26,556 nt of DNA from UHGV virus genome UHGV-0062447. One strand, written 5' to 3'. Source of the stretch: a virus. Shown one piece after another: positions 3,438-25,865 of the stretch. Numbering within the stretch: position 1 is the stretch's first letter; each line of letters begins with the position of its first letter. The notes beneath the pieces were generated by a model that was not told the origin of the DNA, made no database searches, and was given only the letters and a program-made list of their open reading frames with translations. A program made the position numbers and the translations under genes.

Positions 3438-3455
3438 TGTGTGGTAAATGACACA
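3438..3455. promoter_or_regulatory. TGT-N12-ACA dyad (P2 Ogr / 186 B late-activator-type site) upstream of V
   Basis: Sequence TGTGTGGTAAATGACACA read directly; P2 late promoters carry TGT-N12-ACA upstream of the -35 region. Spacing to the V start (about 55 bp to the ATG) is shorter than expected, so tentative. Confidence 0.3.
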
Positions 3456-3486
3456 AATACAATTCCAATCGAAGAAAGGTAAAAGA

Positions 3487-4017
3487 ATGAGCCATCCAAT
3501 TGATTATTACGCTATAGAAGAACACGCAAGAATAATTGAGCAATTATGCTGTTCATCTGAATTTTATTTACAGCGTATATATTCCACACAGAAAGTATAT
3601 GATGGTTCTATAGTAACTGAATTTGAAATGGAGGAGTTATCGTACAACGGATGGTTGGAATATACCATTAGCAACAATCTTATTAGCCTTTGTACAAAAC
3701 TACGAATTCTCCAAGACACTAATGAACATGAGTGGAACCCAGATTACTCACCTGAGAAAGAAGCATTTGAAGAACATGAAAATATACTTTTTGTTATAGA
3801 TGGTCATGTTAAAGGTTCTATACGCGAATGCTGCAATAAAATTATTCACGCATTAAGTTTTGAGTTAACAAAAAAGACCGGCAAAAATGGAATAAAATAT
3901 TGGGATGGTTCTATTATTGCTTCTGGGGTTCAAAACAAAAAAAACTGGAAAATTAAAATAGACCTTTTCCCTTTTTGCCAAAGCATAAAAAGTTATTTAA
4001 GTTTATTAAGTGCGTAA
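3487..4017 (+). CDS. Hypothetical protein (176 aa), low-GC cargo gene between V and S on the opposite strand
   Basis: ORF 3448..4017; preferred start ATG 3487 preceded by AAAGG (gaaaggtaaaagaATG); alternative ATG at 3448. Coding sequence is very AT-rich relative to flanking core genes. No motif recognised. Confidence 0.65.
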   Translation: MSHPIDYYAIEEHARIIEQLCCSSEFYLQRIYSTQKVYDGSIVTEFEMEELSYNGWLEYTISNNLISLCTKLRILQDTNEHEWNPDYSPEKEAFEEHENILFVIDGHVKGSIRECCNKIIHALSFELTKKTGKNGIKYWDGSIIASGVQNKKNWKIKIDLFPFCQSIKSYLSLLSA

Positions 4018-6510: not shown

Positions 6511-6714
6511 TCAGTCCCATAGCTGGACGGTCTGCACGGTGGTGGTGGTCGGAATGTCCGGCAGCTCCACCTGCAGCCCGTGAGGTAAAAAGGGGCCGTA
6601 TTCGGCAAGCCCCGGATTTGCCTTCAGTACCTGCTCCGTGACACCCTGCGTGCGCCCGTAATGACGCCAGCAAAGCGCGTCCACCGTGTCATACTGATGC
6701 GCACGCACTTTCAT
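6511..6714 (-). CDS. X: Tail protein X
   Basis: 67-aa ORF between L and Y; ATG 6712-6714 overlaps L stop; P2 gpX-like size and position. Confidence 0.75.
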   Translation of the reverse strand: MKVRAHQYDTVDALCWRHYGRTQGVTEQVLKANPGLAEYGPFLPHGLQVELPDIPTTTTVQTVQLWD

Positions 6715-7178
6715 CAGATAAGCTCCACTGTGCAGTGCGGCGCATCCTGTACCCGGCTGATGGCCCAGCGTGCGTCACGCCACAAATCACCGCTGGATTC
6801 CGCCAGTTCCTCGCCTCGCTTCACACCGGATGCCGTGGCGTCATAGTCCTGGTATCGTTCGTTGAGCATGGCGCGTGCCCAGCAGTAAACCGCGTTGAAA
6901 TAGTGCTGAATGCGCTCACTTTTGCCGTCCAGCTGTTCCGCCGGAACCTCAGCCAGCGACACATACCCCAGCATCTGCTGACGTCTGCGAAACTCATACA
7001 GCTCTGCGTTGACCTCCGAAATTGCCGACAGCGCAACCTGCTTTAAACGCGGCTGCGTCACCGTGCCGTCAGTGCGCATGACACTGCGAAACTCCGACAG
7101 GTCCACATCAGGCCAGAACGGCGTATTTCTGATGATTTCCGCCTGTTCCGGTGCCTGTTCTGGCGCAACAAACTTCAT
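6714..7178 (-). CDS. L: Head completion/stabilisation protein L
   Basis: From ATG 7176-7178 (MKFVAPEQ...) preceded by AGGAGA; gpL-like; the ORF-track N-terminal extension is probably untranslated. Confidence 0.75.
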   Translation of the reverse strand: MKFVAPEQAPEQAEIIRNTPFWPDVDLSEFRSVMRTDGTVTQPRLKQVALSAISEVNAELYEFRRRQQMLGYVSLAEVPAEQLDGKSERIQHYFNAVYCWARAMLNERYQDYDATASGVKRGEELAESSGDLWRDARWAISRVQDAPHCTVELI

Positions 7179-7273: not shown

Positions 7274-7924
7274 TCAGCGGCTGTCATTGCGCAGTCTGCG
7301 CTCCAGCTGCTGTTTGTCTTTTTTCACGCCACAGCGGGGATCGAGCTGTAACGCATGGTTGAGATGATTAAGGGCGGAAGCCGGATTGCTTTCACTCAGG
7401 ACAGCGCCAATCGCTTTATGCAGACGCGCCCGTGACTGGTCCGGCATATCCAGACCGTCTGTCAGCTCCAGCGTCTGCAACAACAGATCGGCATCAAAGC
7501 CGGTGGCGGCAAGCATTGCGCTCTGCGCGGCGTCTGCCATTTCCTCTGCCAGCACGGTCTGCACATTGCGGTTACCCAGTGGCATCACCCAGCCATGACG
7601 CAGGGCATGACGCCCGATCTCCAGCGCCCCGGCATAATCTCCGGCATCAATGCGCCACAGCATCACGTACATCAGTACGTCATCCTGTTGAGTGCCTCCG
7701 GCAGCCAGGACGCCCTCTGCCCAAGCGGCGTACTTCGGCAGCAGCTCCACCTTTATTTCCGCTTTTTTCACCGTGGACTGAACGCCCTTGAGACGGCGGC
7801 GGTCTTCCGCCAGTTGCAGCAGCATCAGGTCATAGCCCGACGCGTGGCGAACACTGCCGCCCTCACGGGCGGCCTGTTCAGCCTGAACGCGCAGGCGATG
7901 CTGCCGTGCGGGACTCAGGCTCAT
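7274..7924 (-). CDS. M: Terminase endonuclease (small) subunit M
   Basis: 216-aa ORF, ATG 7922-7924; gpM-like translation; between N and L. Confidence 0.8.
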   Translation of the reverse strand: MSLSPARQHRLRVQAEQAAREGGSVRHASGYDLMLLQLAEDRRRLKGVQSTVKKAEIKVELLPKYAAWAEGVLAAGGTQQDDVLMYVMLWRIDAGDYAGALEIGRHALRHGWVMPLGNRNVQTVLAEEMADAAQSAMLAATGFDADLLLQTLELTDGLDMPDQSRARLHKAIGAVLSESNPASALNHLNHALQLDPRCGVKKDKQQLERRLRNDSR

Positions 7925-9978: not shown

Positions 9979-11745
9979 ATGAACACCACACTGACACCCA
10001 CAGATCTCGATCCCCGTCGGCAGGCCATGCTGCTGTACTTTCAGGGATACCGCGTAGCCCGCATTGCTGAAATGCTGGGCGAGAAAGTTGCAACCGTTCA
10101 CAGCTGGAAGAAACGCGACAAGTGGGGTGACTATGGGCCGCTGGATCAGATGCAGCTCACCACCGCCGCCCGCTACTGCCAGCTCATTATGAAGGAGCAC
10201 AAAGAAGGGAAAGATTTCAAAGAGATTGACCTGCTGGCGCGCCAGTCGGAACGCCACGCGCGGATCGGCAAGTTTAACAATGGCGGCAACGAAGCCGACT
10301 TAAACCCTAACGTCGCCAACCGCAACAAAGGCCCGCGCCGTCAGCCGGAAAAGAATGTTTTCACCGATGAGCAGATTGAGAAGCTGGAAGAAATCTTCCA
10401 TTCCTCCATGTTCAACTACCAGCGCCACTGGTGGGAAGCCGGAAAAACCAACCGCATCCGCAACCTGCTGAAATCACGCCAGATCGGCGCGACCTTTTAC
10501 TTTGCCCGTGAAGCCCTGATTGACGCTCTGCTTACCGGACGTAACCAGATTTTCCTTTCCGCCAGTAAGGCACAGGCCCACGTCTTTAAGCAGTACATCA
10601 TCGACTTCGCCAAAGAAGTCGAGGTGGAGCTGAAAGGCGATCCGATGGTGCTTCCTAACGGGGCCACGCTTTACTTCCTCGGCACCAATGCCCGCACGGC
10701 CCAGAGTTACCACGGCAACCTGTATCTGGATGAATATTTCTGGATACCGAAATTCCAGGAGCTGCGCAAAGTGGCTTCCGGTATGGCTATTCACAAAAAA
10801 TGGCGACAAACCTATTTTTCCACGCCATCCAGCCTGACACACAGTGCTTATCCGTTCTGGTCCGGTGCGCTGTTCAACCGGGGGCGCAACAAAGCCGATA
10901 AGGTGGACATCGACCTGTCCCACAGCAATCTGGCCCCCGGCCTGCTGTGCGCAGACGGGCAGTACCGCCAGATAGTCACCGTGGAAGATGCGGTGCGCGG
11001 CGGCTGTAACCTGTTCGACCTTGACCAGTTGCGCATGGAGTACAGCCCGGACGAATACCAGAACCTGCTGATGTGCGAGTTTGTGGACGATCTCGCGTCC
11101 GTGTTTCCGCTCAGCGAGCTGCAGGCGTGCATGGTGGACAGCTGGGAAGTCTGGACCGACTTTCATGCACTGGCGCTGCGCCCGTTTGGCTGGCGCGAGG
11201 TGTGGATCGGTTATGACCCGGCAAAAGGTACGCAGAACGGCGACAGCGCCGGGTGCGTGGTGGTGGCACCGCCAGCCGTGCCGGGCGGTAAGTTCCGCAT
11301 TCTTGAGCGTCACCAGTGGCGCGGGATGGACTTCCGCGCTCAGGCTGACGCCATCAAAAAACTGACCGAACAGTACAACGTGACATATATCGGCATCGAC
11401 TCGACAGGTGTCGGTCACGGAGTTTATGAGAACGTGAAAGCGTTCTTTCCTGCCGTCCGGGAGTTTGTCTACAACCCCAACGTTAAAAACGCCCTGGTAC
11501 TCAAGGCCTACGACATTATCAGCCACCGCCGTCTGGAGTTTGACGCCGGACACACCGACATTGCGCAGTCATTCATGGCAATCCGTCGCGCAACCACCGC
11601 CAGCGGCAACCGCCCGACCTATGAAGCCAGCCGCAGCGAAGAAGCCAGCCACGCCGATCTGGCCTGGGCAACAATGCACGCACTGTTTAACGAACCGCTG
11701 CAGGGCGAATCCGCCAATACCAGCAATATTGTGGAGATTTTTTGA
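9979..11745 (+). CDS. P: Terminase ATPase (large) subunit P
   Basis: 588-aa ORF, ATG 9979; P2 gpP-like translation; stop overlaps Q start (ATGA). Confidence 0.9.
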   Translation: MNTTLTPTDLDPRRQAMLLYFQGYRVARIAEMLGEKVATVHSWKKRDKWGDYGPLDQMQLTTAARYCQLIMKEHKEGKDFKEIDLLARQSERHARIGKFNNGGNEADLNPNVANRNKGPRRQPEKNVFTDEQIEKLEEIFHSSMFNYQRHWWEAGKTNRIRNLLKSRQIGATFYFAREALIDALLTGRNQIFLSASKAQAHVFKQYIIDFAKEVEVELKGDPMVLPNGATLYFLGTNARTAQSYHGNLYLDEYFWIPKFQELRKVASGMAIHKKWRQTYFSTPSSLTHSAYPFWSGALFNRGRNKADKVDIDLSHSNLAPGLLCADGQYRQIVTVEDAVRGGCNLFDLDQLRMEYSPDEYQNLLMCEFVDDLASVFPLSELQACMVDSWEVWTDFHALALRPFGWREVWIGYDPAKGTQNGDSAGCVVVAPPAVPGGKFRILERHQWRGMDFRAQADAIKKLTEQYNVTYIGIDSTGVGHGVYENVKAFFPAVREFVYNPNVKNALVLKAYDIISHRRLEFDAGHTDIAQSFMAIRRATTASGNRPTYEASRSEEASHADLAWATMHALFNEPLQGESANTSNIVEIF

Positions 11746-12773
11746 TGGGAAAGAGTAAGAAGAACCGCGCTGCGGCGACGAAACAGCTCCAGCTTAAAAA
11801 CCAGACTACAGCCGAAGCATTCAGCTTCGGCGATCCCGTTCCTGTTCTGGACCGCCGAGAACTGCTGGACTATGTGGAATGCGTACAGATGGATCGCTGG
11901 TATGAGCCGCCCGTCAGCCTTGACGGACTGGCACGAACCTTCCGCGCCGCCGTGCATCACAGCTCACCAATTGCGGTGAAATGCAACATTCTGACCAGTA
12001 CCTACATCCCTCACCCGCTGCTCAGCCAGCAGGCTTTTTCACGTTTTGTGCAGGACTATCTGGTATTTGGTAACGCCTACCTGGAGAAACGCACGAACCG
12101 CTTCGGTGAAGTTATCGCCCTTGAGCCTGCTCTGGCAAAATACACCCGACGCGGGTTAGACCTGGATACCTACTGGTTTGTACAATACGGCATGACTACG
12201 CAGCCGTATCAGTTCACGAAAGGCAACATTTTTCATCTGATGGAACCGGACATCAACCAGGAGATCTACGGCCTGCCCGGTTATCTTTCTGCAATTCCGT
12301 CAGCTCTGCTCAACGAGTCCGCCACGCTGTTCCGCCGCAAGTATTACATTAACGGCAGTCATGCAGGCTTCATCATGTACATGACCGATGCAGCGCAGAA
12401 CCAGGAGGATGTGAACAACCTCCGCAATGCGATGAAAAGCGCCAAAGGTCCTGGTAACTTCCGTAACCTGTTTATGTACTCGCCTAACGGTAAAAAGGAC
12501 GGGCTTCAGATTATTCCTCTGTCAGAAGTCGCGGCAAAGGATGAATTTTTGAATATCAAGAACGTGAGCCGGGATGACATGATGGCAGCACACCGAGTGC
12601 CGCCGCAAATGATGGGGATAATGCCGAATAATGTTGGGGGATTTGGGGATGTGGAGAAGGCTAGTAAGGTTTTTATGCGTAATGAATTGATACCGCTACA
12701 AAACAGAATAGAAGAACTCAATAAATGGCTCAAAGATGACATAATAAAATTCATGCCATACAGTTTCATATAA
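11745..12773 (+). CDS. Q: Portal (capsid vertex) protein Q
   Basis: 342 aa from ATG 11745; P2 gpQ-like; the last ~110 bp of coding sequence are markedly AT-rich. Confidence 0.85.
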   Translation: MGKSKKNRAAATKQLQLKNQTTAEAFSFGDPVPVLDRRELLDYVECVQMDRWYEPPVSLDGLARTFRAAVHHSSPIAVKCNILTSTYIPHPLLSQQAFSRFVQDYLVFGNAYLEKRTNRFGEVIALEPALAKYTRRGLDLDTYWFVQYGMTTQPYQFTKGNIFHLMEPDINQEIYGLPGYLSAIPSALLNESATLFRRKYYINGSHAGFIMYMTDAAQNQEDVNNLRNAMKSAKGPGNFRNLFMYSPNGKKDGLQIIPLSEVAAKDEFLNIKNVSRDDMMAAHRVPPQMMGIMPNNVGGFGDVEKASKVFMRNELIPLQNRIEELNKWLKDDIIKFMPYSFI

Positions 12774-12778
12774 AACTA

Positions 12779-12799
12779 AGGGCCGAATACCTCGGCCCT
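12779..12799 (-). terminator. Rho-independent terminator hairpin (8-bp stem AGGGCCGA/TCGGCCCT) with U-tract on the minus-strand transcript
   Basis: Stem-loop read directly, immediately 3-prime of the 557-aa minus-strand gene; the T-run on the minus strand overlaps the last codons of Q. Confidence 0.6.
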
Positions 12800-12804
12800 C
12801 TACA

Positions 12805-14478
12805 TTAAGATTTATGGCTAAAGAGTATACCTGTAACAGAACGTTGATAGGCATCAAGCTTCTCTTGCCTCTGCTTAAATTTAGATTTGATATCACTAAT
12901 ACTCGGAATACCTATTACTCCAAGGCCTGCACTTAACGTCGCTAAAGTAGTATTGCCAGTCAGCGCTCCAGCAATTGCTATAGCACCATTTGCGATACAT
13001 GGTAGGACATCTAGTCCGTAAATTCTCAATTTCTCTTTTTGGGCTTTTGCAAGAATCCTTTGATGTTCAATAAAAGCCCGGTCTACATTATCAATTACTT
13101 TTTGCGTTGTCCTCGAAAAGCTCTCTGCCGAAGAATTGATTAAAGAGTCAACACCATTTGATAAGATGGATCTTACATCCTCCATCAATTTGTTACGTCT
13201 CAACTCAATTATTTTATTGACCGGTACATTTCCTAACCATGAAAAACCATCTTGCATACCAGCAGATAACGCATGAACCATATGCAAATTTTTTAGTTCA
13301 ATATCATTGACATCAAAATTAAGAGATTCGTACTCAATAAGCCAAGTATAATAGAGCCAAGATGTGTCTGCATTTATATATGGAGTACTACCAAGTTCTT
13401 GTGCATTACATTTTGCTGAATAGGCTTGCGGCATTCTTCCAATGCAGGAAAGGAAAACCTCCATTCCAGCATGATCACCAACAACATTACGTGATATTCT
13501 TTTTTTATCAGATAGTAGTTTTTCTAATTGAGTTTTTGGATTTAGCCCCCATGCTGTATCAAAAATAAGTCTATCTGCTCTCTTAATATTTTTAAGAACA
13601 GCATCAATATCATTCATCGAATAACTAAAATCTTGAAATTCATCGTAGCTTTCGAACCGTCGATCATAGAGATATTGCGCATGAGTCAGAGCATAAGGCT
13701 CACAAAAACTCATCAAATTTTTTTTGCTCTCAGTTTCAAAATCTCTTCTATCCGGCAAAATTAATACTATTGCTGGCTCTATATCTTCAAGCGCTACTTC
13801 TTTATATGTCATACATGTTAGGACATGCTTTAGAAGTATCCTTGTAAACTCAGCCTTATCTGACTTTTCATAGAGACGACCGACTCTTAATATAGGACAT
13901 GGAAGTGAAATAGTATCAACATACAACCCTGCAATAGAGACAGCATTCTCATCAAATGCAGGAAATAAGTCACCAGAAAAATTAGCTTTAAACTGAGAAC
14001 CATCCTGCAAATGTATTACACCAATATCGGATGTTACCTGCCAAAACTCTATTACCTGATTATATAACTCAGGAAAAACATCTTCTATTTGCTTAACATA
14101 TTCTTCTTGTTGAGAAAAAAAACTTGATGCTTTATGTGGCGTTGCATTAGTTTTTTTCATCAGATAAAACAACTCGCCAAAATTACTAAAAAGAATATTA
14201 AAGTAAGAACTTTGCAAGTCCTGAATAGAGTATTTGTTTTTTATATCTTCTCTTTCTAAAAAGTGATTAACCGCTGCTCCCATAGCCTTTATTCTGCCAT
14301 CAACAGTAGAAGGGTCAACTTTACCATCCTGTCGCAGCCTTATTCTTTTAAAACTTTCAATAAAACCTTCTACAAGATGATGAGCTATTTTTAGTTTTCC
14401 CGCTTCCAGTTGTTGCTTAATGAGAAAAACACGCTCAGTTAAATCGTCTACATATTCCTCATCTTGATATTTTTCCAT
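12805..14478 (-). CDS. Hypothetical 557-aa protein with C-terminal hydrophobic/glycine-rich hairpin; low-GC cargo gene between Q and cos
   Basis: Single long ORF, ATG 14476-14478 with GGAG 6 nt upstream; very AT-rich; C-terminal segment ...LPCIANGAIAIAGALTGNTTLATLSAGLGVIGIPSI... is hydrophobic; no Walker motif or other domain recognised by eye. Confidence 0.8.
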   Translation of the reverse strand: MEKYQDEEYVDDLTERVFLIKQQLEAGKLKIAHHLVEGFIESFKRIRLRQDGKVDPSTVDGRIKAMGAAVNHFLEREDIKNKYSIQDLQSSYFNILFSNFGELFYLMKKTNATPHKASSFFSQQEEYVKQIEDVFPELYNQVIEFWQVTSDIGVIHLQDGSQFKANFSGDLFPAFDENAVSIAGLYVDTISLPCPILRVGRLYEKSDKAEFTRILLKHVLTCMTYKEVALEDIEPAIVLILPDRRDFETESKKNLMSFCEPYALTHAQYLYDRRFESYDEFQDFSYSMNDIDAVLKNIKRADRLIFDTAWGLNPKTQLEKLLSDKKRISRNVVGDHAGMEVFLSCIGRMPQAYSAKCNAQELGSTPYINADTSWLYYTWLIEYESLNFDVNDIELKNLHMVHALSAGMQDGFSWLGNVPVNKIIELRRNKLMEDVRSILSNGVDSLINSSAESFSRTTQKVIDNVDRAFIEHQRILAKAQKEKLRIYGLDVLPCIANGAIAIAGALTGNTTLATLSAGLGVIGIPSISDIKSKFKQRQEKLDAYQRSVTGILFSHKS

Positions 14479-14579
14479 AAACGCTCCATTAAAATATTTA
14501 ATAATGCATATAAGAATAGTTAATAATATTTACAGTAACTATATCACATTAGATCCAGATTGTTACACTGTTGCGCGCG

Positions 14580-14598
14580 CTCGTATCCCCGCCACGCC
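14580..14598 (-). other. Putative cos site (cohesive-end sequence)
   Basis: Minus-strand sequence GGCGTGGCGGGGATACGAG; the first 13 nt match the P2/186 cohesive-end sequence as I recall it (GGCG[A/T]GGCGGGGAAAGCA[C/T]), followed by a CGCGCGC tract as in the P2 left end. Location between Q and A is as expected. Confidence 0.5.
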
Positions 14599-14640
14599 TG
14601 CCCGCTTTATGTAGCGGTTTTCATGCGCCTGCATGACATA

Positions 14641-14667
14641 AGCAAAAGCCCGCCACTCCTGGCGGGC
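14641..14667 (-). terminator. Rho-independent terminator (GCCCGCC-ACTCCT-GGCGGGC stem-loop, T-run on minus strand)
   Basis: Read directly; lies about 95 bp 3-prime of the 203-aa minus-strand gene. Confidence 0.65.
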
Positions 14668-14758
14668 CTCAGCTAAAACGATCCTCAAACGATCATGCGG
14701 ATTCATGCGGCATAGACATGCACAATCTCCAAAGCGGGCATCGAGACTTTTTGGAAAC

Positions 14759-15370
14759 CTACGTAACCACAGTTAATGTGTGCATCCTGTCTCGAATTGC
14801 ATCACACGTCTCATCAAAAAGCTTGGTGATGGTTGTACAGTTCAACTCCGCCTCTTTCCAATAATTTTGCCCGTCAAATTCTGGATCGCTATGCTTAAAC
14901 GATATTGACTCTGAAAGGCATTCCTTCCGGAAACGGTCCAAGATTATATAAACCTCTGGTGAGATGAACGGTTTGTTAGATTCAACACTTGTAACAAAAG
15001 TGTTAAATGCATCAAAAAAAACTTTCAACCTTCTAAATTTTCTCTCTTCAAATGGTTCGTTGGGGTCAACATGATCCAGCGCAGGCCTCAGCTTAAGCAC
15101 GCTTTCTCTGGTTTCAAACATCGAATTCCAAATGAGACTATATGCTGATAACTCCTTATCAAAATACGCTTTCGTTACATAAACAGAATTGTCTAACTTA
15201 GCCTTTATTCTTTCATTAGTTGCACTCAGTTGTGATTGAAATTCAGCAATATCTTTGTTTAGCCGCGACTTATATCTTTCTAAATAAACTTTCCCGATCC
15301 AAACAAATATGCCAGATGCAACAAAAGACACCCCACCCAACGAAGCCAGAACTTTAAAGACTAAATCCAT
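14759..15370 (-). CDS. Hypothetical 203-aa membrane-anchored protein (N-terminal TM helix); low-GC cargo gene between cos and the SOS operon
   Basis: ATG 15368-15370 preceded by AGGTGGGGG; N-terminus MDLVFKVLASLGGVSFVASGIFVWIG is a predicted TM helix; AT-rich; nothing recognised in the remainder. Confidence 0.8.
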   Translation of the reverse strand: MDLVFKVLASLGGVSFVASGIFVWIGKVYLERYKSRLNKDIAEFQSQLSATNERIKAKLDNSVYVTKAYFDKELSAYSLIWNSMFETRESVLKLRPALDHVDPNEPFEERKFRRLKVFFDAFNTFVTSVESNKPFISPEVYIILDRFRKECLSESISFKHSDPEFDGQNYWKEAELNCTTITKLFDETCDAIRDRMHTLTVVT

Positions 15371-15752: not shown

Positions 15753-15986
15753 TTAGTGCAGCCAGCTGTCGTCTTCCCAAACCTGTTGCATAATTTCCAT
15801 CACCCGCTTTTTGTCTTCATCAAGCTTTAAGCCACTCAGCTCAACGCCGTTTGCCGCCCCTTTACGGATGCGGATAGCGGTCTTGGGATAGATGGGTTGC
15901 AGGTTGCGGTAAAGCTCGGACTCCAGAGCGTCCAGGGTAGACTGGCTAATCTTCTGCTCTTTATCGATCATTATTTCAATGCGCAT
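15753..15986 (-). CDS. DinI-family protein (77 aa), 186 Tum C-terminal-like
   Basis: From ATG 15984-15986: MRIEIMIDKEQKISQSTLDALESELYRNLQ...GAANGVELSG...EDKKRVMEIMQQVWEDDSWL parallels E. coli DinI (MRIEVTIAK...DALAGELSRRIQ...AAANNLSVIG...EDKQRISEILQETWE) as I recall it; SD GAGGTGA upstream. Confidence 0.8.
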   Translation of the reverse strand: MRIEIMIDKEQKISQSTLDALESELYRNLQPIYPKTAIRIRKGAANGVELSGLKLDEDKKRVMEIMQQVWEDDSWLH

Positions 15987-15996
15987 AAAAGTCACC

Positions 15997-16185
15997 TCAA
16001 CTGATGACATCCATTGAGCGGTTGTATTCGTGGGTTCTGATTTTTGCCATGAGTTCATCTGTTAGTTCAGAAACCCACTGCAAAGCCAGCCCCTTCTCTT
16101 CATCACTACACTCACTAGCCGCTACAAGCTTAAGAAAAAAATCAATGCGCTGGAGCTTCAAAGACTCCAAAAAATAGTCCTGCAT
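15997..16185 (-). CDS. Small protein (62 aa), first cistron of the LexA-controlled operon
   Basis: ATG 16183-16185 preceded by GGAGGAAAAATG; ends 10 nt before the dinI-like ATG. Confidence 0.6.
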   Translation of the reverse strand: MQDYFLESLKLQRIDFFLKLVAASECSDEEKGLALQWVSELTDELMAKIRTHEYNRSMDVIS

Positions 16186-16338: not shown

Positions 16339-18753
16339 TTAATACATGTTCCGCCATTTATCATCCTCCTGCAGACGCTGGTTCCGATAGAAGATACGCA
16401 GGCCTGCTCCTGACGGAATACTGCCACCGCGAAGGAGCAACTCGACCTCTTTCTCGCTGCCATCAAATCCTCTGGACTTCAGTTCATAGACAAGCTGCTG
16501 TCGCTGATGGTCTGTAATTCGCTGTTTGTAGTCTTTACGCCGTTTCGGTTTCACCAGGCGTAACCTTGCTGCCAGTTCCCGGCGATCTTTTTTGCTCATA
16601 CTGTGCAGGTAATCGTGCAACTCCTTGTCATTCATACGGGTAATATCCGTTCTGGAGTCCCCATCAGCTGATTTGTTTTTCCCTTGTTGGTTCAAATTTT
16701 CAGCAAGGGGACAGTTATTGCCACGAGTCCAAGGGGCGCAAGCGCCCTGGTCGGCTGCCGCCTCCTGAACGTCAACGGCCTTACGAACCATTTTCCACTT
16801 CACCGCATGAGTGCAGATCTTGCCCTCTGCAATGGGTGACCAGATGCCATAAATACGAATACCGTGATCGCCATAGGCGGTTGGCTCTTCGTTGATTTCA
16901 TAAGCGGTTCTGATGAGGTGATATTTACGGGGAACCAGTACGCCGCCCTGCTTCATGATATAGGTGGCAAAACAACCAGCATCAGCAGCAGCCAGAATGG
17001 CATCAAGGCGCGGGTTATCCAGTACCGGCGCACCTGCTTTTTTGTCACCCTGTTGCCTTGCCGCCTGACCAGCCAGCAATCGCAGTTCACGGTAAGCCTG
17101 ACGCCCCGGAATGCCAAAGAAGCGGAATTGCTGAACACGATGCAGAGACGCCCAGGCATTAACGTATTCAGCGTTATCACGCAGGGATTTACCCGTTTCC
17201 TTGCTGATCTCCCCAGCCAGACCACGCCCGTCAATGTTCTTACTGATGTATTTCGCGATATAGCTTGTTGGCGTACCTTTGCGCGGGTTTATCAGCTCAG
17301 ACTTAAAGCGTGGTCCCGTGTTATTGCCCAGCTCCTCGCGGTCTTCACGGATGGCAAACTTACGCAGTAATGCAGTGATGGCGCGGCGGTCTTTTTTACG
17401 CATGAAACACATGAGATGCCAGTGCACAGTACCGTCATGATGCGGCTCAGCTACCCGCACGCCATACCAGCGCAACTCGGCTTTATGCATAGCCTTACGA
17501 AATGCAGCAAACATGCCGACCAGATAATCGCTACTTTGTCTTACCGTCGCGTTTGTCCAGGTCGGGTTTGGTCTGCCGTTATTGAGCGTGGAATGGAAAC
17601 GCGACGGACAGGTGATAGTGTAGAAAACGGCACAGTCACTGCGCATTTCCGCGATAAGCTCCAGACCTTTAACACAGGCCATCATCTCATTGCGGCGATG
17701 CGCCGGGTTGCTGCTGCTGGCGTTTACCACATCTTCCATATCCAGCGTGTCGCCGTCTTCGTTCACCAGTTCATGAGAACGAAAAAACTCCAGCGACTTA
17801 CGGCGCTGCTCACGTTTATGCATCACGGCTTCATAGCTGACATAGGGGGATGCTTTTTTGCTGACCAGGCAGACAGCACGCAACTGCTCTTCCCGCCATT
17901 CGCAACGCATCTTCCATAATTTCCGATACCACCAGTCGGCACACAACATACGCGCCAGCGAACCCGGGATGAGTTCATAGGGCACTGGTTTGCGGCGGTT
18001 TCTTTTCCGACGAAGTTTCTCAAACGCAGGCGGGATAACATCCAGACGCAGGGTTTCCGCTGCCACCTTTTCCCATGTCTTGCGGATTTCTTCTGGCTTA
18101 ACGTCATCGGTGGCATACAAGTCACCACAAGCGTCCTCAAGACACATGCTCATATGCGCTGCTACCAGGGTGGACAGGCGTTTCACCTGATCCTGGCTCA
18201 TTTCAGGCAGGATCAGCAGACCCTCCAGCCCTTGATGGCTTGCCATAAAACGGAAAGAAACAGATAGCTGACTGTCACGTACACAATCCAGTCGCTCCAG
18301 ACATGGCTTAATCGTCTCACGCAAATAGCGGGAATAAGCCTTTGGCCTGCCCAGGCTGCTGAAGTATTCAATACGTTGCATCAGCGGCTTGCTGATATGG
18401 GAAGGCTGGGCGTTTACGTCCGCCAGAATGACCATGTCCGGATTAAAACGCTGCTGCTCATGCGCCAGCTTTGCCCGGCTAATGAGCTTATCCTGCTCCA
18501 TTTCGCGCTGGACAGGATCACGGGATTCATTAAAGAAATAACGCTCCCAGACCTGCTCACTCAGTGCCTCGCGGCGCAGTTGTTCCTGCTCGTTATCGGC
18601 AGCGTACAGAGTGATCAGGTTTGAAAGTGCAGACTCCGGCGCAACTTCCGCCGGGTCCAGATAAGGGTTAATGGCCTTTTTCGAGCCGTTCCATGAAAAT
18701 GCTGCGGCGGCCTCGTTAAAGCCGCTGCAATTGTTCATATCGTCATGACTCAT
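16339..18753 (-). CDS. A: Replication initiation protein A (rolling-circle endonuclease), P2/186 gpA-like
   Basis: 804 aa from ATG 18751-18753 (overlaps dam stop as ATGA); large protein in the expected position, with translation recognised as P2/186 gene A family. Confidence 0.85.
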
Positions 18754-19607
18754 ACACACACTCCGTACACGGCAGAACTATCCACGCCACGCGAAGGATC
18801 AAATCCCAACCAGCAGCTCGGCCCGGAAACAGCAATGATTTCTGTTGCAGATTTACCCTCGCCAGCTGACACGCCGATGCTGCGTTTTGCCTTGATATAG
18901 TGGTGAGTAAAATTGCGATACAGCGAACGAATCAGGGATGTGTCATTGTTAGAAACAATGACCGGATGTCCTTCTGATGACCGATGTTCAAGAATGGATG
19001 CCAGGTGATACTGGTCATCTTCAGTGAAACCATCAGTGTGATAGCCGGAAAACGTACCGTCATACGGCGGATCGCAATACACCACATCCCCCACCTGCAG
19101 CATCGCCAGCGTTTCATCAAAGCTCGCGCAGATAAACGTTGCCCGCTGGGCTTTCTCTGCAAATGCGCGAATTTCTTTTTCAGGGAAATACGGATTTTTA
19201 TAATTACCGTAGGGAATGTTGAAATACCCGCTCTTGTTATAGCGACATAAACCACGGTAACCGTGACGATTGAGATACAGGAAATATATCGCCTTCATGA
19301 AATCAGTAATTTCAGTTGAGTAATTAAACTCCTGTCTTATGTTGTAATAAGCCAGCTCACTGTTTGCTTCCTCAAATAAAACTTTGGCACGAGATATAAA
19401 CGCTTCGCAATCAGCGGCAATCTTTTTATAGAGGTTGATTAAATCAGGATTAATATCCGCAACCAGATAGCTGGGGTAATCCGTCGCCATCATCACAGCA
19501 CAAGAACCCGCGAAAGGTTCAACCAGTCGCGGGCCAGCAGGAAGGTATTTTTTCAGTTCGGACATAATGGCGGTTTTATTACCCGCCCATTTCAGGATGG
19601 TGCTCAT
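18750..19607 (-). CDS. dam: DNA adenine methyltransferase (Dam-like, N6-adenine MTase)
   Basis: From ATG 19605-19607: [23 protein letters not shown]...FAGSCAV... and a DPPY catalytic motif ([14 protein letters not shown]). Confidence 0.85.
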
Positions 19608-19831
19608 ACAGCACCTCCGTTGTAATGTTTGCCTTTCAGCTCTGCGATTTCCTGGCAGGTAATGCAAAGCTGCACTCCAGGAATGGCACGGCGGCGTGCT
19701 GGCGGAATTGGCGCTTCACACTCAACGCAAAGCACGCGGGACACGCCCGGCGTTTTGGCGCGGGCAGCACGGATATGACGCTGGCGTTCTTCTTCAACGC
19801 GCTGCTGTACGAGATCCATTGCATCAGCCAT
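19604..19831 (-). CDS. TraR/DksA-family C4 zinc-finger protein
   Basis: 75 aa with CVEC...CITC motif; ATG overlaps the upstream stop; stop overlaps dam start. Confidence 0.75.
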   Translation of the reverse strand: MADAMDLVQQRVEEERQRHIRAARAKTPGVSRVLCVECEAPIPPARRRAIPGVQLCITCQEIAELKGKHYNGGAV

Positions 19832-21050: not shown

Positions 21051-21509
21051 ATGACTAAACAAAGCTCCGAATACTTCCAATTACACTACTGTTATTACCT
21101 TGAACTAATGACAGCAACGTTCCATGGTCGAGCTGATAAATTAATGACAGCAATCCAACTTATAAGCGGAACAGCTGTATTTGCTAATACAGGTCTGGAA
21201 TGGTTGTTCGCTTTTCCTGTTGTTGTAATCGCAACAATCCAACTTGTATGGCAACCAGCTATTATTGCGGAACGAGCAAGCGTACAAAGCCGACAATATG
21301 GTGAGTTGCTTTACGCCGAGGATGAATTGTCTCCACAGTTCATTGCACAAAAATTGAAAGCTTTGCATCACTCTGACTCCACAACATTCGGATCTTTGTT
21401 AAACCCTGCCTACAAAAGAGCTGCTATTGCCTGTGGTCGGGTTGACGATGTAAACCTCAGCTTCCAAGAAAAACTTTTCGCTTGGTTCGCAGGTTGTTTG
21501 CCACGTTAA
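21051..21509 (+). CDS. Hypothetical membrane protein (152 aa, two predicted TM helices), opposite strand to the early operon
   Basis: ATG 21051 with AGGAAT upstream; hydrophobic segments LMTAIQLISGTAVFANTGLEWLFAFPVVVIATIQLVW; lower GC than the surrounding backbone; followed by hairpin CCCCGG-N11-CCGGGG (21545-21567). Confidence 0.65.
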   Translation: MTKQSSEYFQLHYCYYLELMTATFHGRADKLMTAIQLISGTAVFANTGLEWLFAFPVVVIATIQLVWQPAIIAERASVQSRQYGELLYAEDELSPQFIAQKLKALHHSDSTTFGSLLNPAYKRAAIACGRVDDVNLSFQEKLFAWFAGCLPR

Positions 21510-21697: not shown

Positions 21698-22207
21698 TCA
21701 CAGCAAACCGAATGAAGCACCGAGGCCAGTCACGGTATCAACTGCACTCGCCATCGCAGGATTAGCCTGTAAACGGGCCTGCAATGAAACAGCAGCCAGC
21801 GCCATCAGTCGTGTTACAGAGTTAATGCTGCTGATAGCATCACGACGACCTGCACTGGTTTTTACATCGCCAGATACCGCACCTGCAGCAACACGTCCGA
21901 TCTCTGCGGTTGCACTCATGACGTAATGTGGCAGTTTCTCTTTTGCTACCTCATTAATCGGTACACATGGCAGACAGTGAATCTGAGCCAGAAAGCCATC
22001 TACCAGCGTCGAATCTTCAGTCAGATCGGTAAGCAGCCAAATTTCTGGTGCGGTTAATAAATGAGGTTGAGCAGGGTTCAACTTGTTTCGCAGAATCTGC
22101 ACATTCATTCCTGCACGTCCTGCCAGCTGCACCAGGTTGTGGCGCAGTGCGAATGCACGACAGGCTTCATCAAAATGTGGATGTTTGGAAACTTGGTAAT
22201 CAAACAT
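21698..22207 (-). CDS. cII: CII-like lysogeny-establishment regulator (186 CII family)
   Basis: From ATG 22205-22207: [24 protein letters not shown]...[15 protein letters not shown]...[26 protein letters not shown]... closely parallels 186 CII (169 aa) as recalled. Confidence 0.85.
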
Positions 22208-22271
22208 GGTTTTCAATTCCGAACTTATCGCAAAATCGAACTCAGCGTCTTATTGCGAAAATAGACGTCTA

Positions 22272-22475: not shown

Positions 22476-22564
22476 AAGGCAACATTCCTTCTAGATATGG
22501 CTTGTGGCGAGCCGTTGTTTGTCGTGATTAGTAGTGAAGGCTCCAAAAGAAGACTTCTGGTTCA

Positions 22565-22593
22565 ACTTTAAGATCGCTTTTGGAATCTGTCAA
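22565..22593 (-). promoter_or_regulatory. Lytic promoter (pR-like): -35 TTGACA, 17-bp spacer, -10 TAAAGT on the minus strand
   Basis: Read on the minus strand: TTGACAgattccaaaagcgatctTAAAGT. Directed toward apl and located inside the cI leader, the face-to-face arrangement described for 186 pR/pL. Confidence 0.55.
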
Positions 22594-22620
22594 CGAATTT
22601 TGGATTTCTTTGGAGGATTT

Positions 22621-23190
22621 GTGGATTTCAATAGCGGCGGTAAGAAAGCCATAGAACGTTTGGTTGAAGCATACGGGTTCGGTACCCGTCAGGCTCTCTG
22701 TGATCATTTAGGTGTTTCTAAGAGCACCATGGCAACGCGTTATATGCGTGATATTTTTCCGGCAGATTGGGTAATCCAGTGCGCCCTTGAAACGGGTACC
22801 TCGCTTAATTGGCTAACAACAGGGCATGGTTCAAAGCAAGCATCAGCAAATACAAATACTATAGAAGTAGTAAAATATTTATTGTCTGATGGAGCATTGC
22901 AGGAAGACGGTTTTTATATTTTTGATAAGGGATTTCTACCCTCTACGTTTAAAAAACCTTTTGTCATCACAGATAACAATTCTGAATTTATTTGTGATAA
23001 AGAATTTGATGATATACGTGATGGTAAATGGGTAATAAGTATTGATGGCGAAATAACAATCCGCGACATCACTCGTTTACCCGGTGGAAGAATTTTCGTT
23101 GAAGGTGGAAACAGAGCCTTCGAGTGCAAGATAGAAGATGTTGAAATAATTGGAAAAATTATAAGCTTAACAGTTAAGTATGTTAGATAA
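22621..23190 (+). CDS. cI: CI immunity repressor (186 CI family)
   Basis: Preferred GTG start at 22621 preceded by GGAGG (ORF-track start 22534 is also GTG). N-terminal HTH region (...AIERLVEAYGFGTRQALCDHLGVSKSTMATRYMR...ALETGTSLNWLTTGHG) and C-terminal pattern (WVISIDGEITIRDITRLPGG...GGNRAFECKIEDVEIIG) parallel 186 CI; C-terminal half is AT-rich. Confidence 0.8.
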   Translation: MDFNSGGKKAIERLVEAYGFGTRQALCDHLGVSKSTMATRYMRDIFPADWVIQCALETGTSLNWLTTGHGSKQASANTNTIEVVKYLLSDGALQEDGFYIFDKGFLPSTFKKPFVITDNNSEFICDKEFDDIRDGKWVISIDGEITIRDITRLPGGRIFVEGGNRAFECKIEDVEIIGKIISLTVKYVR

Positions 23191-23401: not shown

Positions 23402-24733
23402 ATGAGCACAGATATAACTTTCGATATACGTGATGAATATAAAAGAAAAGCCATTGCAGAAAAAATAATAAGTTTGCTAGAGTCTAATATTCCTGTTTCA
23501 CCTATGGTCATAGATGGGGACTGGGGGACTGGAAAAACAGAGTTTTCAAAAAAGTTAGCATCCTTAATTGAAATAAACTCGACCAATCATAAAGTAGTTT
23601 ATATAGATGCTTTTACTGAAGATCACAACGATGCTCCCATACTTACAATAATGGCCGCAATTGCAGCTCTATATAATAGCGATGAAAAAAAGGAATTAAT
23701 ATCTAAGGCATTGCCAGCCCTCAGATTCGGACTTAAGACTGTACTCAAAGCTGGTGCTGGTTGGGTATTAAAACAAAATGCGGATGAAATTAATGAGGAA
23801 TTTGAAGAGGTTATCAAAGACGCTGCAAATTCAGCTATCGATGGAACCATCGAGGCTCTGTTAGAAGATCATATCGAGGCACAAAAGAACGTTCTTGCTC
23901 TAAAAGAAGTACTAACCAAATTAGCTGGAGAAAGTAAACTAACAATAATTATAGATGAGTTAGACAGATGTAAGCCTAGTTTTGCCATTTCTATTATTGA
24001 AAATATAAAACATGTTTTTGATATAAAAAACATTAACTTTTTATTAATTGCAAACACAACTCAACTAAAAGCATCCATAAATCATATCTATGGCTCTTCT
24101 GTAGACTCCAACCGTTATCTTGACAAATTTATAAAATTTACATACAGCCTTCCTGTTACCTTTAAGGAAGATAATTATAATGACACTTTAACTTCCAAAA
24201 ATCATTGGATGATGCTATGTGAGCAATCTGAAAGGCTGACCGCTGCAGTAGAAGCCAGCGAAGATATTTTCTTACAGTTCATTGAAAGTAGAAAATTATC
24301 ATTACGTGAGGTTGAAACACTTGCTAGATATGTTGAAATATACCAACTACTATCAGGCGACAAAATTAGCAACAAATATATTTATGGATATTGTTATTAC
24401 AGGACTCTAGCGATAATAATCTACACTTTTAACCGAGAGTTAGCTCTCAACTTTCTTGAAGATAAAGTTGATGCTCAATCAATCATGAAATTGTTTGGTT
24501 TGTCTAAATTTTCATATCAAACAAGTGAATATAATGTAGATAATTATGAATATGCTATATTTGGAATAGTTTACAAATACTTATCTGAAAACTCATCTCT
24601 TTTACCTACTGAGGAAAATATAAAAAGACAATGGGCAGAAATGAGTGAATACCATTTTTTAAAAGGTAGTGGCGGTATTGGTGAACCAACAAATATTGTG
24701 AAAGATGCTTTAAAAGTTTTTTTACTTCAGTGA
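23402..24733 (+). CDS. KAP-family P-loop NTPase (443 aa)
   Basis: Walker A in the KAP-typical form GDWGTGKT and Walker B IIIDELDRC (DxLDRC); AT-rich; ATG 23402 preceded by AGGAA. Confidence 0.75.
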   Translation: MSTDITFDIRDEYKRKAIAEKIISLLESNIPVSPMVIDGDWGTGKTEFSKKLASLIEINSTNHKVVYIDAFTEDHNDAPILTIMAAIAALYNSDEKKELISKALPALRFGLKTVLKAGAGWVLKQNADEINEEFEEVIKDAANSAIDGTIEALLEDHIEAQKNVLALKEVLTKLAGESKLTIIIDELDRCKPSFAISIIENIKHVFDIKNINFLLIANTTQLKASINHIYGSSVDSNRYLDKFIKFTYSLPVTFKEDNYNDTLTSKNHWMMLCEQSERLTAAVEASEDIFLQFIESRKLSLREVETLARYVEIYQLLSGDKISNKYIYGYCYYRTLAIIIYTFNRELALNFLEDKVDAQSIMKLFGLSKFSYQTSEYNVDNYEYAIFGIVYKYLSENSSLLPTEENIKRQWAEMSEYHFLKGSGGIGEPTNIVKDALKVFLLQ

Positions 24734-24759
24734 TATGTATGGCTATACAAATTCATACA

Positions 24760-24788
24760 TTGACACTGGTTATATATACAGTAAAAAT
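24760..24788 (+). promoter_or_regulatory. Putative sigma70 promoter upstream of int (-35 TTGACA) overlapped by a LexA-box-like dyad CTGGTTATATATACAG
   Basis: Read directly: TTGACA-CTGGTTATATATACAG-TAAAAAT; the dyad differs from CTGT-N8-ACAG at one position. Confidence 0.35.
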
Positions 24789-24812
24789 GCTCTCCACTGG
24801 AGGGCATTTTTT

Positions 24813-25865
24813 ATGGCTGTACGAAAACTCACCACAGGAAAATGGCTTTGCGAATGTTACCCCGCCGGACGTAGTGGGCGTCGTGTGCGTAAACAATTCG
24901 CCACCAAAGGCGAAGCACTGGCTTTTGAGCGTCACACGATGGAAGAAACCGAAGCAAAGCCCTGGCTGGGTGAATCAGTGGATCGTCGAACACTGAAAGA
25001 CGTGGTTGAGCTATGGTTCAAACTACATGGTAAATCTCTGACTGCTGGGCAGCATGTCTATGACAAATTGCTGCTGATGGTTGACGCTCTGGGCAATCCC
25101 CTTGCAACTGATCTAACCTCTAAAATGTTTGCCCACTATCGAGATAAACGCCTGACAGGTGAGATCTACTTCAGCGAGAAATGGAAGAAAGGAGCAAGCC
25201 CGGTCACCATTAACCTGGAGCAAAGCTATCTAAGTAGTGTTTTTAGCGAACTATCCCGCCTGGGCGAATGGTCGTATCCGAACCCACTGGAGAACATGCG
25301 AAAATTCACCATCGCAGAAAAAGAGATGGCATGGCTTACCCATGAGCAGATTGTTGAATTACTGGCTGATTGCAAACGTCAGGAGCCAATTCTGGCACTG
25401 GTAGTTAAGATATGCTTAAGCACAGGCGCACGCTGGCGAGAAGCCGTAAATCTTACCCGCTCACAGGTGACCAAATACCGAATTACCTTTGTAAGAACGA
25501 AGGGGAAGAAAAACAGAAGCATCCCTATCAGTAAAGAGCTTTACGAAGAGATCATGGCGCTTGATGGATTCAATTTCTTCACAGACTGCTATTTTCAATT
25601 TTTATCCGTGATGGAAAAAACGTCTATCGTGCTCCCTCGCGGTCAACTCACACACGTTCTGCGCCATACGTTTGCGGCGCACTTCATGATGTCGGGTGGA
25701 AACATTCTGGCCTTACAAAAAATTCTCGGACACCACGATATAAAAATGACTATGCGTTACGCACATCTGGCACCGGATCATCTGGAAACGGCGCTCCGTT
25801 TCAATCCTCTGGCAACGCTGCCAAGTGGCGACAAAGTGGCGGCAGCGGTTGGCATTACCCCGTAA
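24813..25865 (+). CDS. int: Tyrosine integrase (P2/186 Int family)
   Basis: From ATG 24813: MAVRKLTTGKWLCECYPAGRSGRRVRKQFATKGEALAFE... parallels the P2 Int N-terminus (MAIKKLDDGRYEVDIRPTGRNGKRIRRKFDKKSEAVAFE) and contains the catalytic-region motifs STGARW, HVLRHTFA and MRYAH. Confidence 0.9.
   Translation: MAVRKLTTGKWLCECYPAGRSGRRVRKQFATKGEALAFERHTMEETEAKPWLGESVDRRTLKDVVELWFKLHGKSLTAGQHVYDKLLLMVDALGNPLATDLTSKMFAHYRDKRLTGEIYFSEKWKKGASPVTINLEQSYLSSVFSELSRLGEWSYPNPLENMRKFTIAEKEMAWLTHEQIVELLADCKRQEPILALVVKICLSTGARWREAVNLTRSQVTKYRITFVRTKGKKNRSIPISKELYEEIMALDGFNFFTDCYFQFLSVMEKTSIVLPRGQLTHVLRHTFAAHFMMSGGNILALQKILGHHDIKMTMRYAHLAPDHLETALRFNPLATLPSGDKVAAAVGITP

Follow-up and report, generated by a model that had tools for sequence, protein, structure and literature searches.

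A Fels-2-type cohesive-end site between two cargo genes in a P2-family prophage of Escherichia coli

Phage P2 is reported to package monomeric circles. The cos site of phage lambda resembles the P2-family site described here in its staggered nicks at a partly symmetric cosN and in the fixed-spacing cosB repeats that lie on one side of it and could serve the small terminase or a bending protein; it differs in its 12-nt overhang, unrelated sequence, unrelated terminase lineage, and concatemer substrate. Within the P2 family, P2 and its satellite P4 have 19-nt 5′ cohesive ends (GGCGAGGCGGGGAAAGCAC), and phages 186 and PSP3 carry a related end (GGCGTGGCGGGGAAAGCAT). For P2 and P4, a 55-bp cos core has been defined (Ziermann and Calendar, 1990, as cited in PMC3931495 and PMC5694545). 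Cargo genes located between cosL and gpQ have also been described (Dodd and Egan, 1996; Nakayama, 1999; both as cited in PMC5694545), and the whole cos-proximal region from gpA to gpQ is known as a defence hotspot of P2-like phages (Rousset et al., 2022; a 2026 study in NAR). The ends of a closer relative, E. coli HS phage 1, have been mapped after induction by read start-site analysis and PhageTerm, which gave a 19-nt 5′ cohesive end (Zünd et al., 2021, PMC8008629). The cos of that phage, 5′-GGCGTGGCGGGGATACGAG-3′, was placed at 926016–926034 (Suppl. Table 4 of the same work).

The DNA analysed here (UHGV virus genome UHGV-0062447), called the window throughout, is a stretch of 26,556 nucleotides that holds a P2-family prophage, oriented in reverse of the P2 map and inserted next to rcdA of E. 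coli. The elements on the minus strand come in this order: Dam methylase, gpA (16339–18759), a small ORF, DinI (15753–16058), a 71-aa ORF, a 203-aa ORF, a terminator, cos, a promoter-like site, and a 557-aa ORF, while gpQ and gpP converge on the cos region from the other strand. The order gpA–DinI–cargo–terminator–cos–cargo–gpQ–gpP matches that of P2, 186, and Fels-2, and the site is thus located where the P2 family has its cos. A cognate P2-type terminase (gpP and gpM) is encoded in the same element. The main features of the locus are as follows.

7274–7924, minus strand: small terminase, gpM homologue, 216 aa (phrog_74, terminase small subunit)
9979–11745, plus strand: large terminase gpP, 588 aa (Pfam Terminase_5, Terminase_6N, and Terminase_6C; 99.8% to gpP of E. 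coli HS)
11742–12773, plus strand: portal gpQ, 343 aa, the conserved gene that bounds the cos-proximal variable region on the left (Pfam Phage_portal; 95% to the E. coli HS portal)
12805–14478, minus strand: left-end cargo gene, 557 aa, between cos and gpQ, with its ATG 120 nt from the predicted left terminus
14538–14566, minus strand: sigma-70-like promoter GTAACA-17-TGnTATAGT in cargo-specific DNA, 32–60 nt from the predicted left virion end (consensus match only)
14573–14723, minus strand: entire conserved cos core, 151 bp, at whose two ends homology breaks off sharply (conservation profile; BLAST matches start and stop there)
14573–14579, minus strand: left flank CGCGCGC, putative bottom-strand nick half-site (YGCGCGC follows the 19-mer across the family)
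14580–14598, minus strand: cohesive-end 19-mer GGCGTGGCGGGGATACGAG, Fels-2-type cos allele (sequence, and identity to the cos of SEN8, Cartapus, and E. coli HS)
14599–14626, minus strand: right flank GCATGAAAACCGCTACATAAAGCGGGCA, 28 nt, conserved (alignment with P2, P4, 186, and PSP3)
14602–14621, plus strand: small hairpin CCGCT-N6-AGCGG followed by TTTT, within the conserved right flank (terminator-type scan)
14622–14626, minus strand: fourth GCATG repeat, at -28 from the top-strand cut (same survey as the next three)
14644–14668, minus strand: intrinsic terminator GGCCCGCCAGgagTGGCGGGCTTTT (stem conservation; position of 186 t95b)
14694–14721, minus strand: three GCATG repeats, at -123, -110, and -100 from the top-strand cut (14721, 14708, and 14698; fixed positions across the family)
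14759–15370, minus strand: right-end cargo gene, 203 aa, with its stop codon 160 bp from the predicted right terminus

A first-pass annotation of the letters alone had placed a cos-like site, with a right half unlike that of P2 and 186, in the interval 14560–14620, and comparison with the ends of both phages bears this out. The minus strand there reads caGGCGTGGCGGGGATACGAGCGCGCGCaacag and contains the 19-mer, read from 14598 to 14580, and CGCGCGC at 14579–14573. The 26-mer that these two form (minus strand 14598–14573, GGCGTGGCGGGGATACGAGCGCGCGC) is present in a single copy in the window, and its chance expectation over 100 shuffles was 0.00 even with three mismatches allowed; the exact 13-mer is also unique in the window. 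The reference ends were taken from deposited genomes. The match to P2 and 186 that the annotation had described over the first 13 nt is complete for 186 and PSP3 (13/13) and one base short for P2 (12/13, with A rather than T at position 5). The difference it had noted at positions 14–19, which read TACGAG here and AAGCAT or AAGCAC in P2 and 186, applies to four of the six (14, 16, 17, and 19), the other two being shared. The 19-nt GC-rich cohesive end starting GGCG[A/T]GGCGGGG that typifies the cos of the P2 family is therefore found at 14598–14580 on the minus strand. The annotation had allowed that a better cos match might exist elsewhere in the prophage; since a scan of the whole window for the P2/186 19-mer at up to three mismatches returned no other site, no second or better cos is present in the window.

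The comparison with 186 and PSP3 can be extended beyond the overhang. These phages have the same bases as the window at positions 1–13, 15, and 18, share the flanks GCATTAAAACC...GCGGGCA and YGCGCGC, and have an upstream terminator (t95b) and three GCATK repeats at equal distances; they differ at positions 14, 16, 17, and 19 and in the first base of the left flank, which is C here rather than T, and their terminases are distant from that of the window (63% identity for gpP, 49% for gpM/R). P2 and P4 show the same architecture, with the same flank motifs and the same location adjacent to gpQ, and P2 shares with the window an accessory-gene hotspot next to cos. Unlike the window, P2 has A at position 5 in addition to the differences in the right half; no terminator separates its GCATK repeats from cos, and no gene separates cos from Q.

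The closest counterparts belong to the Fels-2 group. Fels-2, SopEPhi, RE-2010, SEN8, Cartapus, and p13P477T-2 carry the same 19-mer, preceded by the same AAAGCGGGCA and followed by the same CGCGCGC, and in their wider 28-nt right flank, GCATGAAAACC[G/A]CTACATAAAGCGGGCA, one to three positions vary. E. coli HS phage 1 has the 19-mer and these immediate flanks too, and, with it, the whole group has the same terminator–cos layout in the same slot between DinI/cargo and cargo/gpQ, and the terminases of close relatives are 94–100% identical to that of the window; the differences are in the cargo genes on each side and in a G/A polymorphism at 14615. The exact 19-mer and a Fels-2-lineage terminase, the two marks of the Fels-2-type allele, are thus both present in the window. 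The annotated and published cos of SEN8 is the exact 19-mer, and the annotated putative cos region of Cartapus contains it. It is important to note that the cos annotations of SEN8, Cartapus, and Smp131 rest on analogy with P2 rather than on end sequencing, so that the mapping in E. coli HS is the only direct end evidence found. The 19-mer was located at 926016–926034 in NC_009800.1, exactly at the published coordinates, and the HS prophage is 99.8% (gpP), 95% (gpQ), and 96% (gpA) identical to the window, with unrelated cargo on both sides. The linear records of PSP3, SEN8, EtG, and SEN1 stop at the base equivalent to 14599 and that of Smp131 opens at the equivalent of 14598, which puts the cut position in register with the family. 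We regard the site, with high confidence, as the cohesive-end (cos) packaging site of a Fels-2-like prophage of the P2 family (Peduoviridae) in E. coli. This identification draws on sequence identity, conservation, gene context, and the published end mapping in a near-identical phage, from which we infer cleavage and packaging in the prophage of the window.

The cos core is widespread, being present in 1,266 of 5,426 complete E. coli genomes (about 23%). Two records that carry it are unusual. CP019275.1, deposited as the 37,446-bp circular "plasmid" p13P477T-2 of E. coli 13P477T, is the circular genome of a P2-like phage and shares the cos core and the 557-aa left cargo with the window, the cargo being annotated as frameshifted; a further copy is located in the chromosome of this strain, and the "plasmid" is probably an excised or replicating phage that was assembled as such. 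IMGVR_UViG_3300011853_000021 contains two Fels-2-type cos sites, at 3440–3474 (minus strand) and 6695–6729 (plus strand), inverted and 3.2 kb apart in a head-to-head layout (Q–cos–DinI/DinI–cos–Q), which points either to a chimera of the metagenome assembly or to a pair of inverted P2-like elements lying side by side. Homologues of P4 sid, delta, psu, alpha, epsilon, and int were absent from the 80 IMG/VR loci with the exact 35-mer, a viral-contig collection in which satellites are probably not included.

The right half of the overhang follows the terminase. P2 and 186 are 88% (gpP) and 70% (gpM/R) identical to each other, and the window is 63% identical to both in gpP and 49% identical to P2 gpM and 186 R; the divergence from P2 is highest in the N-terminal HTH domain of gpP (50% identity vs. 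67–70% in the ATPase and nuclease domains). Of the IMG/VR loci that include the region and have a gpP at least 94% identical, all 70 carry GGCGTGGCGGGG[A/C]TACGA[G/T], 63 of them in the exact form. Among 80 GTDB species-representative loci, plus P2 and 186, the allele at positions 13–19 varies with the identity of gpP to that of the window.

gpP identity of at least 90% (close relatives): ATACGAG almost always
gpP identity of 83–89%: mostly [C/G]TACGAG
gpP identity of 74–76% (Xenorhabdus, Providencia): mostly TCACGAY
gpP identity of 68–72% (Pectobacterium, Rahnella, Brenneria): mostly ATAGCAT
gpP identity of 63% (P2, 186): AAAGCAY

The exceptions to these bands are ATACGAT in two Yersinia loci (70%), CTACCAT in Buttiauxella (86%), and CTACGAT in one Providencia locus. 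Positions 1–12 are almost invariant apart from position 5 and, together with the flanking half-sites GCGGGCR^ and GCGCGCR^, are common to the whole family. The published variants AGACGAG (Smp131) and GAACGAG (SEN4/5) agree with the lineage pattern. Judging from these alignments, positions 13–19 form an allele that is specific to each lineage and varies in step with the terminase, and the "diverged" half is the standard allele of the Fels-2/Felsduovirus/Elveevirus phages and not a peculiarity of the prophage in the window.

The overhang belongs to a longer conserved unit. In 75 unique sequences of the Fels-2 type, the conserved positions make up a block that begins and ends abruptly, at 14723 and 14573, and comprises, from right to left: three GCATG repeats, two GATC sites, the terminator, the 28-nt right flank (which opens with the fourth GCATG), the 19-mer, and CGCGCGC. 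The right flank is at least 95% conserved in the 75 unique relatives and aligns with GCATTAAAACCG...AAGCGGGCR of P2, P4, 186, and PSP3. On the other side of the 19-mer, YGCGCGC is found in P2, 186, PSP3, P4, and Smp131 and in most of the surveyed GTDB loci, with occasional single-base variants. Right flank, 19-mer, and CGCGCGC add up to 54 bp, a span that fits the published "55-bp cos core", and the corresponding arrangement of a core of about 55 bp with the right flank GCATKAAAAC...GCGGGCR and the left flank YGCGCGC, which the window has, is shared with P2, P4, 186, and PSP3 and with 61 GTDB loci. The bases on the 5′ side of the predicted nicks are GCGGGCA^ on the top strand (14599–14605) and GCGCGCG^ on the bottom strand (14573–14579), and the partial two-fold symmetry GCGSGCR^ is kept in nearly all the P2-family cos sites surveyed. 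By this symmetry argument, homology to the relatives presumably stops exactly 7 bp past the cohesive end because the bottom-strand half-site ends there. Two GATC (Dam) sites, at 14680–14683 and 14691–14694, lie in the near-invariant GCATGATCGTTTGAGGATCG between the GCATG repeats and the terminator, and the prophage has its own Dam-type methylase gene (18750–19667). An Rfam scan of 14450–14850 gave only a sub-threshold chance match (rnk leader, 22.8 bits vs. a gathering score of 55), and the conserved 50 nt ahead of the terminator are not accounted for by any known RNA family in that scan.

The GCATK repeats are also a family feature. They are found at -123, -110, -100, and -28 in 44–60 of 67 unique P2-family cos regions, including P2, 186, PSP3, and the satellite P4, while a control region contained almost no GCATK motifs, and the DNA between the repeats is unconserved among lineages. 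In the Xenorhabdus/Providencia lineage, repeats apparently of the GCAA type occur in place of GCATK. From their spacing and conservation, the repeats may be candidate binding sites for the terminase or for an accessory protein, that is, a cosB-like array outside the 55-bp core, and this array might be one item of possible novelty in the present work. More tentatively, the functional cos of the P2/P4 family may reach well past the 55-bp core, and the repeats, in combination with the lineage-specific positions 13–19, could set packaging specificity among co-resident P2-like phages and satellites; we consider this extension conceivable and rather doubtful.

Beside the cohesive end, the first-pass annotation had noticed a small terminator-like hairpin. 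Its pieces are present on the plus strand (CCGCT at 14602–14606, AGCGG at 14613–14617, and TTTT at 14618–14621), with a loop of 6 nt and not of 7. Were it a rho-independent terminator, it would insulate cos or the right cargo from transcription of leftward origin, and the element does pass a simple terminator scan, having a 5-bp stem with four GC pairs followed by TTTT. Nonetheless, that scan gave two sites against 1.5 expected by chance, and the central pair of the stem is kept in only 11 and the full stem in only 8 of the 75 unique relatives, the majority allele CCACT/AGCGG having an A–C mismatch in the stem. Moreover, the T-run is complementary to the GCATKAAAAC flank that the whole family has, and the conserved GCATGAAAACC is also found in P2, 186, and P4. 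Neither does the gene order provide a transcript to be ended: no plus-strand gene is located between gpQ, which ends at 12773, and the hairpin, and gpQ, the nearest upstream gene on that strand, has its own strong terminator at 12778–12800. A terminator role is thus highly improbable and was rejected; given the low conservation of the stem and the complementarity of the T-run to the family-wide AAAAC, the hairpin is read as part of the recognition sequence, that is, as cos flank. As for position 14615, the minus-strand G of the window (CCGCT), which completes the small stem, is a minority allele found in 4 of 75 unique relatives, and SopEPhi has the same; A is found in 64 of the 75 (CCACT, with the A–C mismatch), and in 7 the pairing is restored in another way, by CCACT/AGTGG. 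A different picture is offered by the terminator at 14644–14668, in which 95% of the stem cells are paired across the 75 relatives and the changes are mostly wobble-compatible. This element ends rightward transcription from the replication/DinI/right-cargo side ahead of cos.

The cos reading itself has two competitors of unequal weight. That the likeness to the P2/186 cohesive end is a coincidence between GC-rich sequences, without a role in packaging, could be argued from the shortness of the motif alone, and its probability is close to nil: zero matches are expected in shuffles, the site is syntenic, between gpA and gpQ, and the 151-bp core is kept across hundreds of phages. The shuffles, the identity within the Fels-2 group, and the coordinates in E. 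coli HS led to the rejection of this explanation. It is less easily dismissed that the site may be a genuine cos by descent that remains as a relic, with no current activity, in a defective prophage. Only 26.5 kb of the prophage are in view, with the tail genes lying outside the window, beyond its coordinate 1, and Cartapus, a close relative, yields very few virions. On the other hand, the packaging and head genes in view are all of full length (gpP, 588 aa; gpQ, 343 aa; gpM, 216 aa; gpN, 352 aa; gpO, 277 aa), the gpP is nearly that of the inducible E. coli HS phage (99.8% identity), the cos core is identical to that of functional relatives, and integrase, CI, CII, gpA, and Dam are all present. 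A relic is, on this balance, unlikely, and a cos serving its own prophage is the preferred reading.

On the P2 model, which the end mapping in E. coli HS supports, the terminase of the prophage (gpP and gpM) would recognize the conserved core after excision and replication. Its nicks, between 14599 and 14598 on the top strand and between 14580 and 14579 on the bottom strand, would be 19 nt apart and give a linear virion DNA with the 19-nt 5′ overhangs GGCGTGGCGGGGATACGAG, the linear genome starting at 14598. Of the two cargo genes, the 557-aa one would lie about 120 nt from the left virion terminus and the 203-aa one about 160 bp from the right terminus; once injected, the DNA would circularize by annealing of its ends, which would make the two genes neighbours again. 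The first-pass annotation had seen cargo on both sides of cos, and the two ORFs, at 12805–14478 and 14759–15370 on the minus strand, were confirmed. It had further held that the exact position of cos decides which cargo gene is at which physical end, which stands, and whether both are injected first or last, which does not: with cos between them the genes are at opposite virion ends and cannot both enter first or both last. No statement on the packaging or ejection polarity of P2 DNA (that is, which end goes first) was found in the accessible literature.

Regarding the cargo itself, the 557-aa protein has no match in Pfam, NCBIfam (passing threshold), PHROG, or PDB and only a weak partial match to DitB in PADLOC (E = 6e-10). 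Its gene is probably driven by the promoter-like site at 14538–14566, as the consensus match suggests, and is unrelated to the genes at the same position in Fels-2, RE-2010 (annotated there as "abortive infection protein"), and E. coli HS. The 203-aa protein has no match in Pfam, NCBIfam (passing threshold), PADLOC, or PDB, and matches phrog_26391, a family of unknown function; CARTA_47 of Cartapus has the same length (612 nt) and position as its gene. Both slots hold different genes in Fels-2, SopEPhi, RE-2010, SEN8, Cartapus, HS, and the window, which is the variable content between gpA/DinI and gpQ that is seen in P2-family phages. As in the gpA–gpQ hotspot of P2-like phages, unrelated accessory genes swap on both sides of cos; in contrast to the defence hotspot, no defence function is assigned to the two cargo genes of the window. 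Some complete E. coli genomes share the left slot with the window and others the right one, and both together are found in none of the 5,426. The matches to the left slot are 99% identical and extend from 14723 across the 557-aa gene up to gpQ, and the breakpoints of the cargo slots fall at the core edges, 14573 and 14723. Since no genome has both slots and the breakpoints coincide with these edges, the 151-bp core acts as an anchor for recombination, with a slot on either side that is exchanged independently of the other.

Three other genes of the window are placed like accessory genes or against their neighbours. A 443-aa KAP-family P-loop NTPase gene (23402–24733, plus strand) lies between the 186-type CI repressor (22534–23190) and the integrase (24735–25865), a site that is another accessory/defence-candidate slot of P2-like phages. 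A 189-aa ORF (3448–4017, plus strand; phrog_18838, of unknown function) runs opposite to the baseplate and tail-completion genes around it and resembles a moron insertion in the late operon. Finally, a 152-aa ORF with no Pfam family (21051–21509, plus strand) lies between CII (21698–22216) and the DUF5347/DUF2732 genes, in an orientation contrary to that of the early genes next to it.

The identification of the cos is correct, and its allele, its position, and the flanking hotspot were already known from published work; the value of the finding is practical rather than conceptual, and it raises no new question on cos biology. The cos fixes the virion ends, with the 557-aa gene on the left and the 203-aa gene on the right, and the core edges at 14573 and 14723 bound, to the nucleotide, two cargo slots that reassort independently around the 151-bp core. 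These boundaries can be used for the annotation of morons and defence candidates, and the core for the design of cosmids for Fels-2-type helpers.
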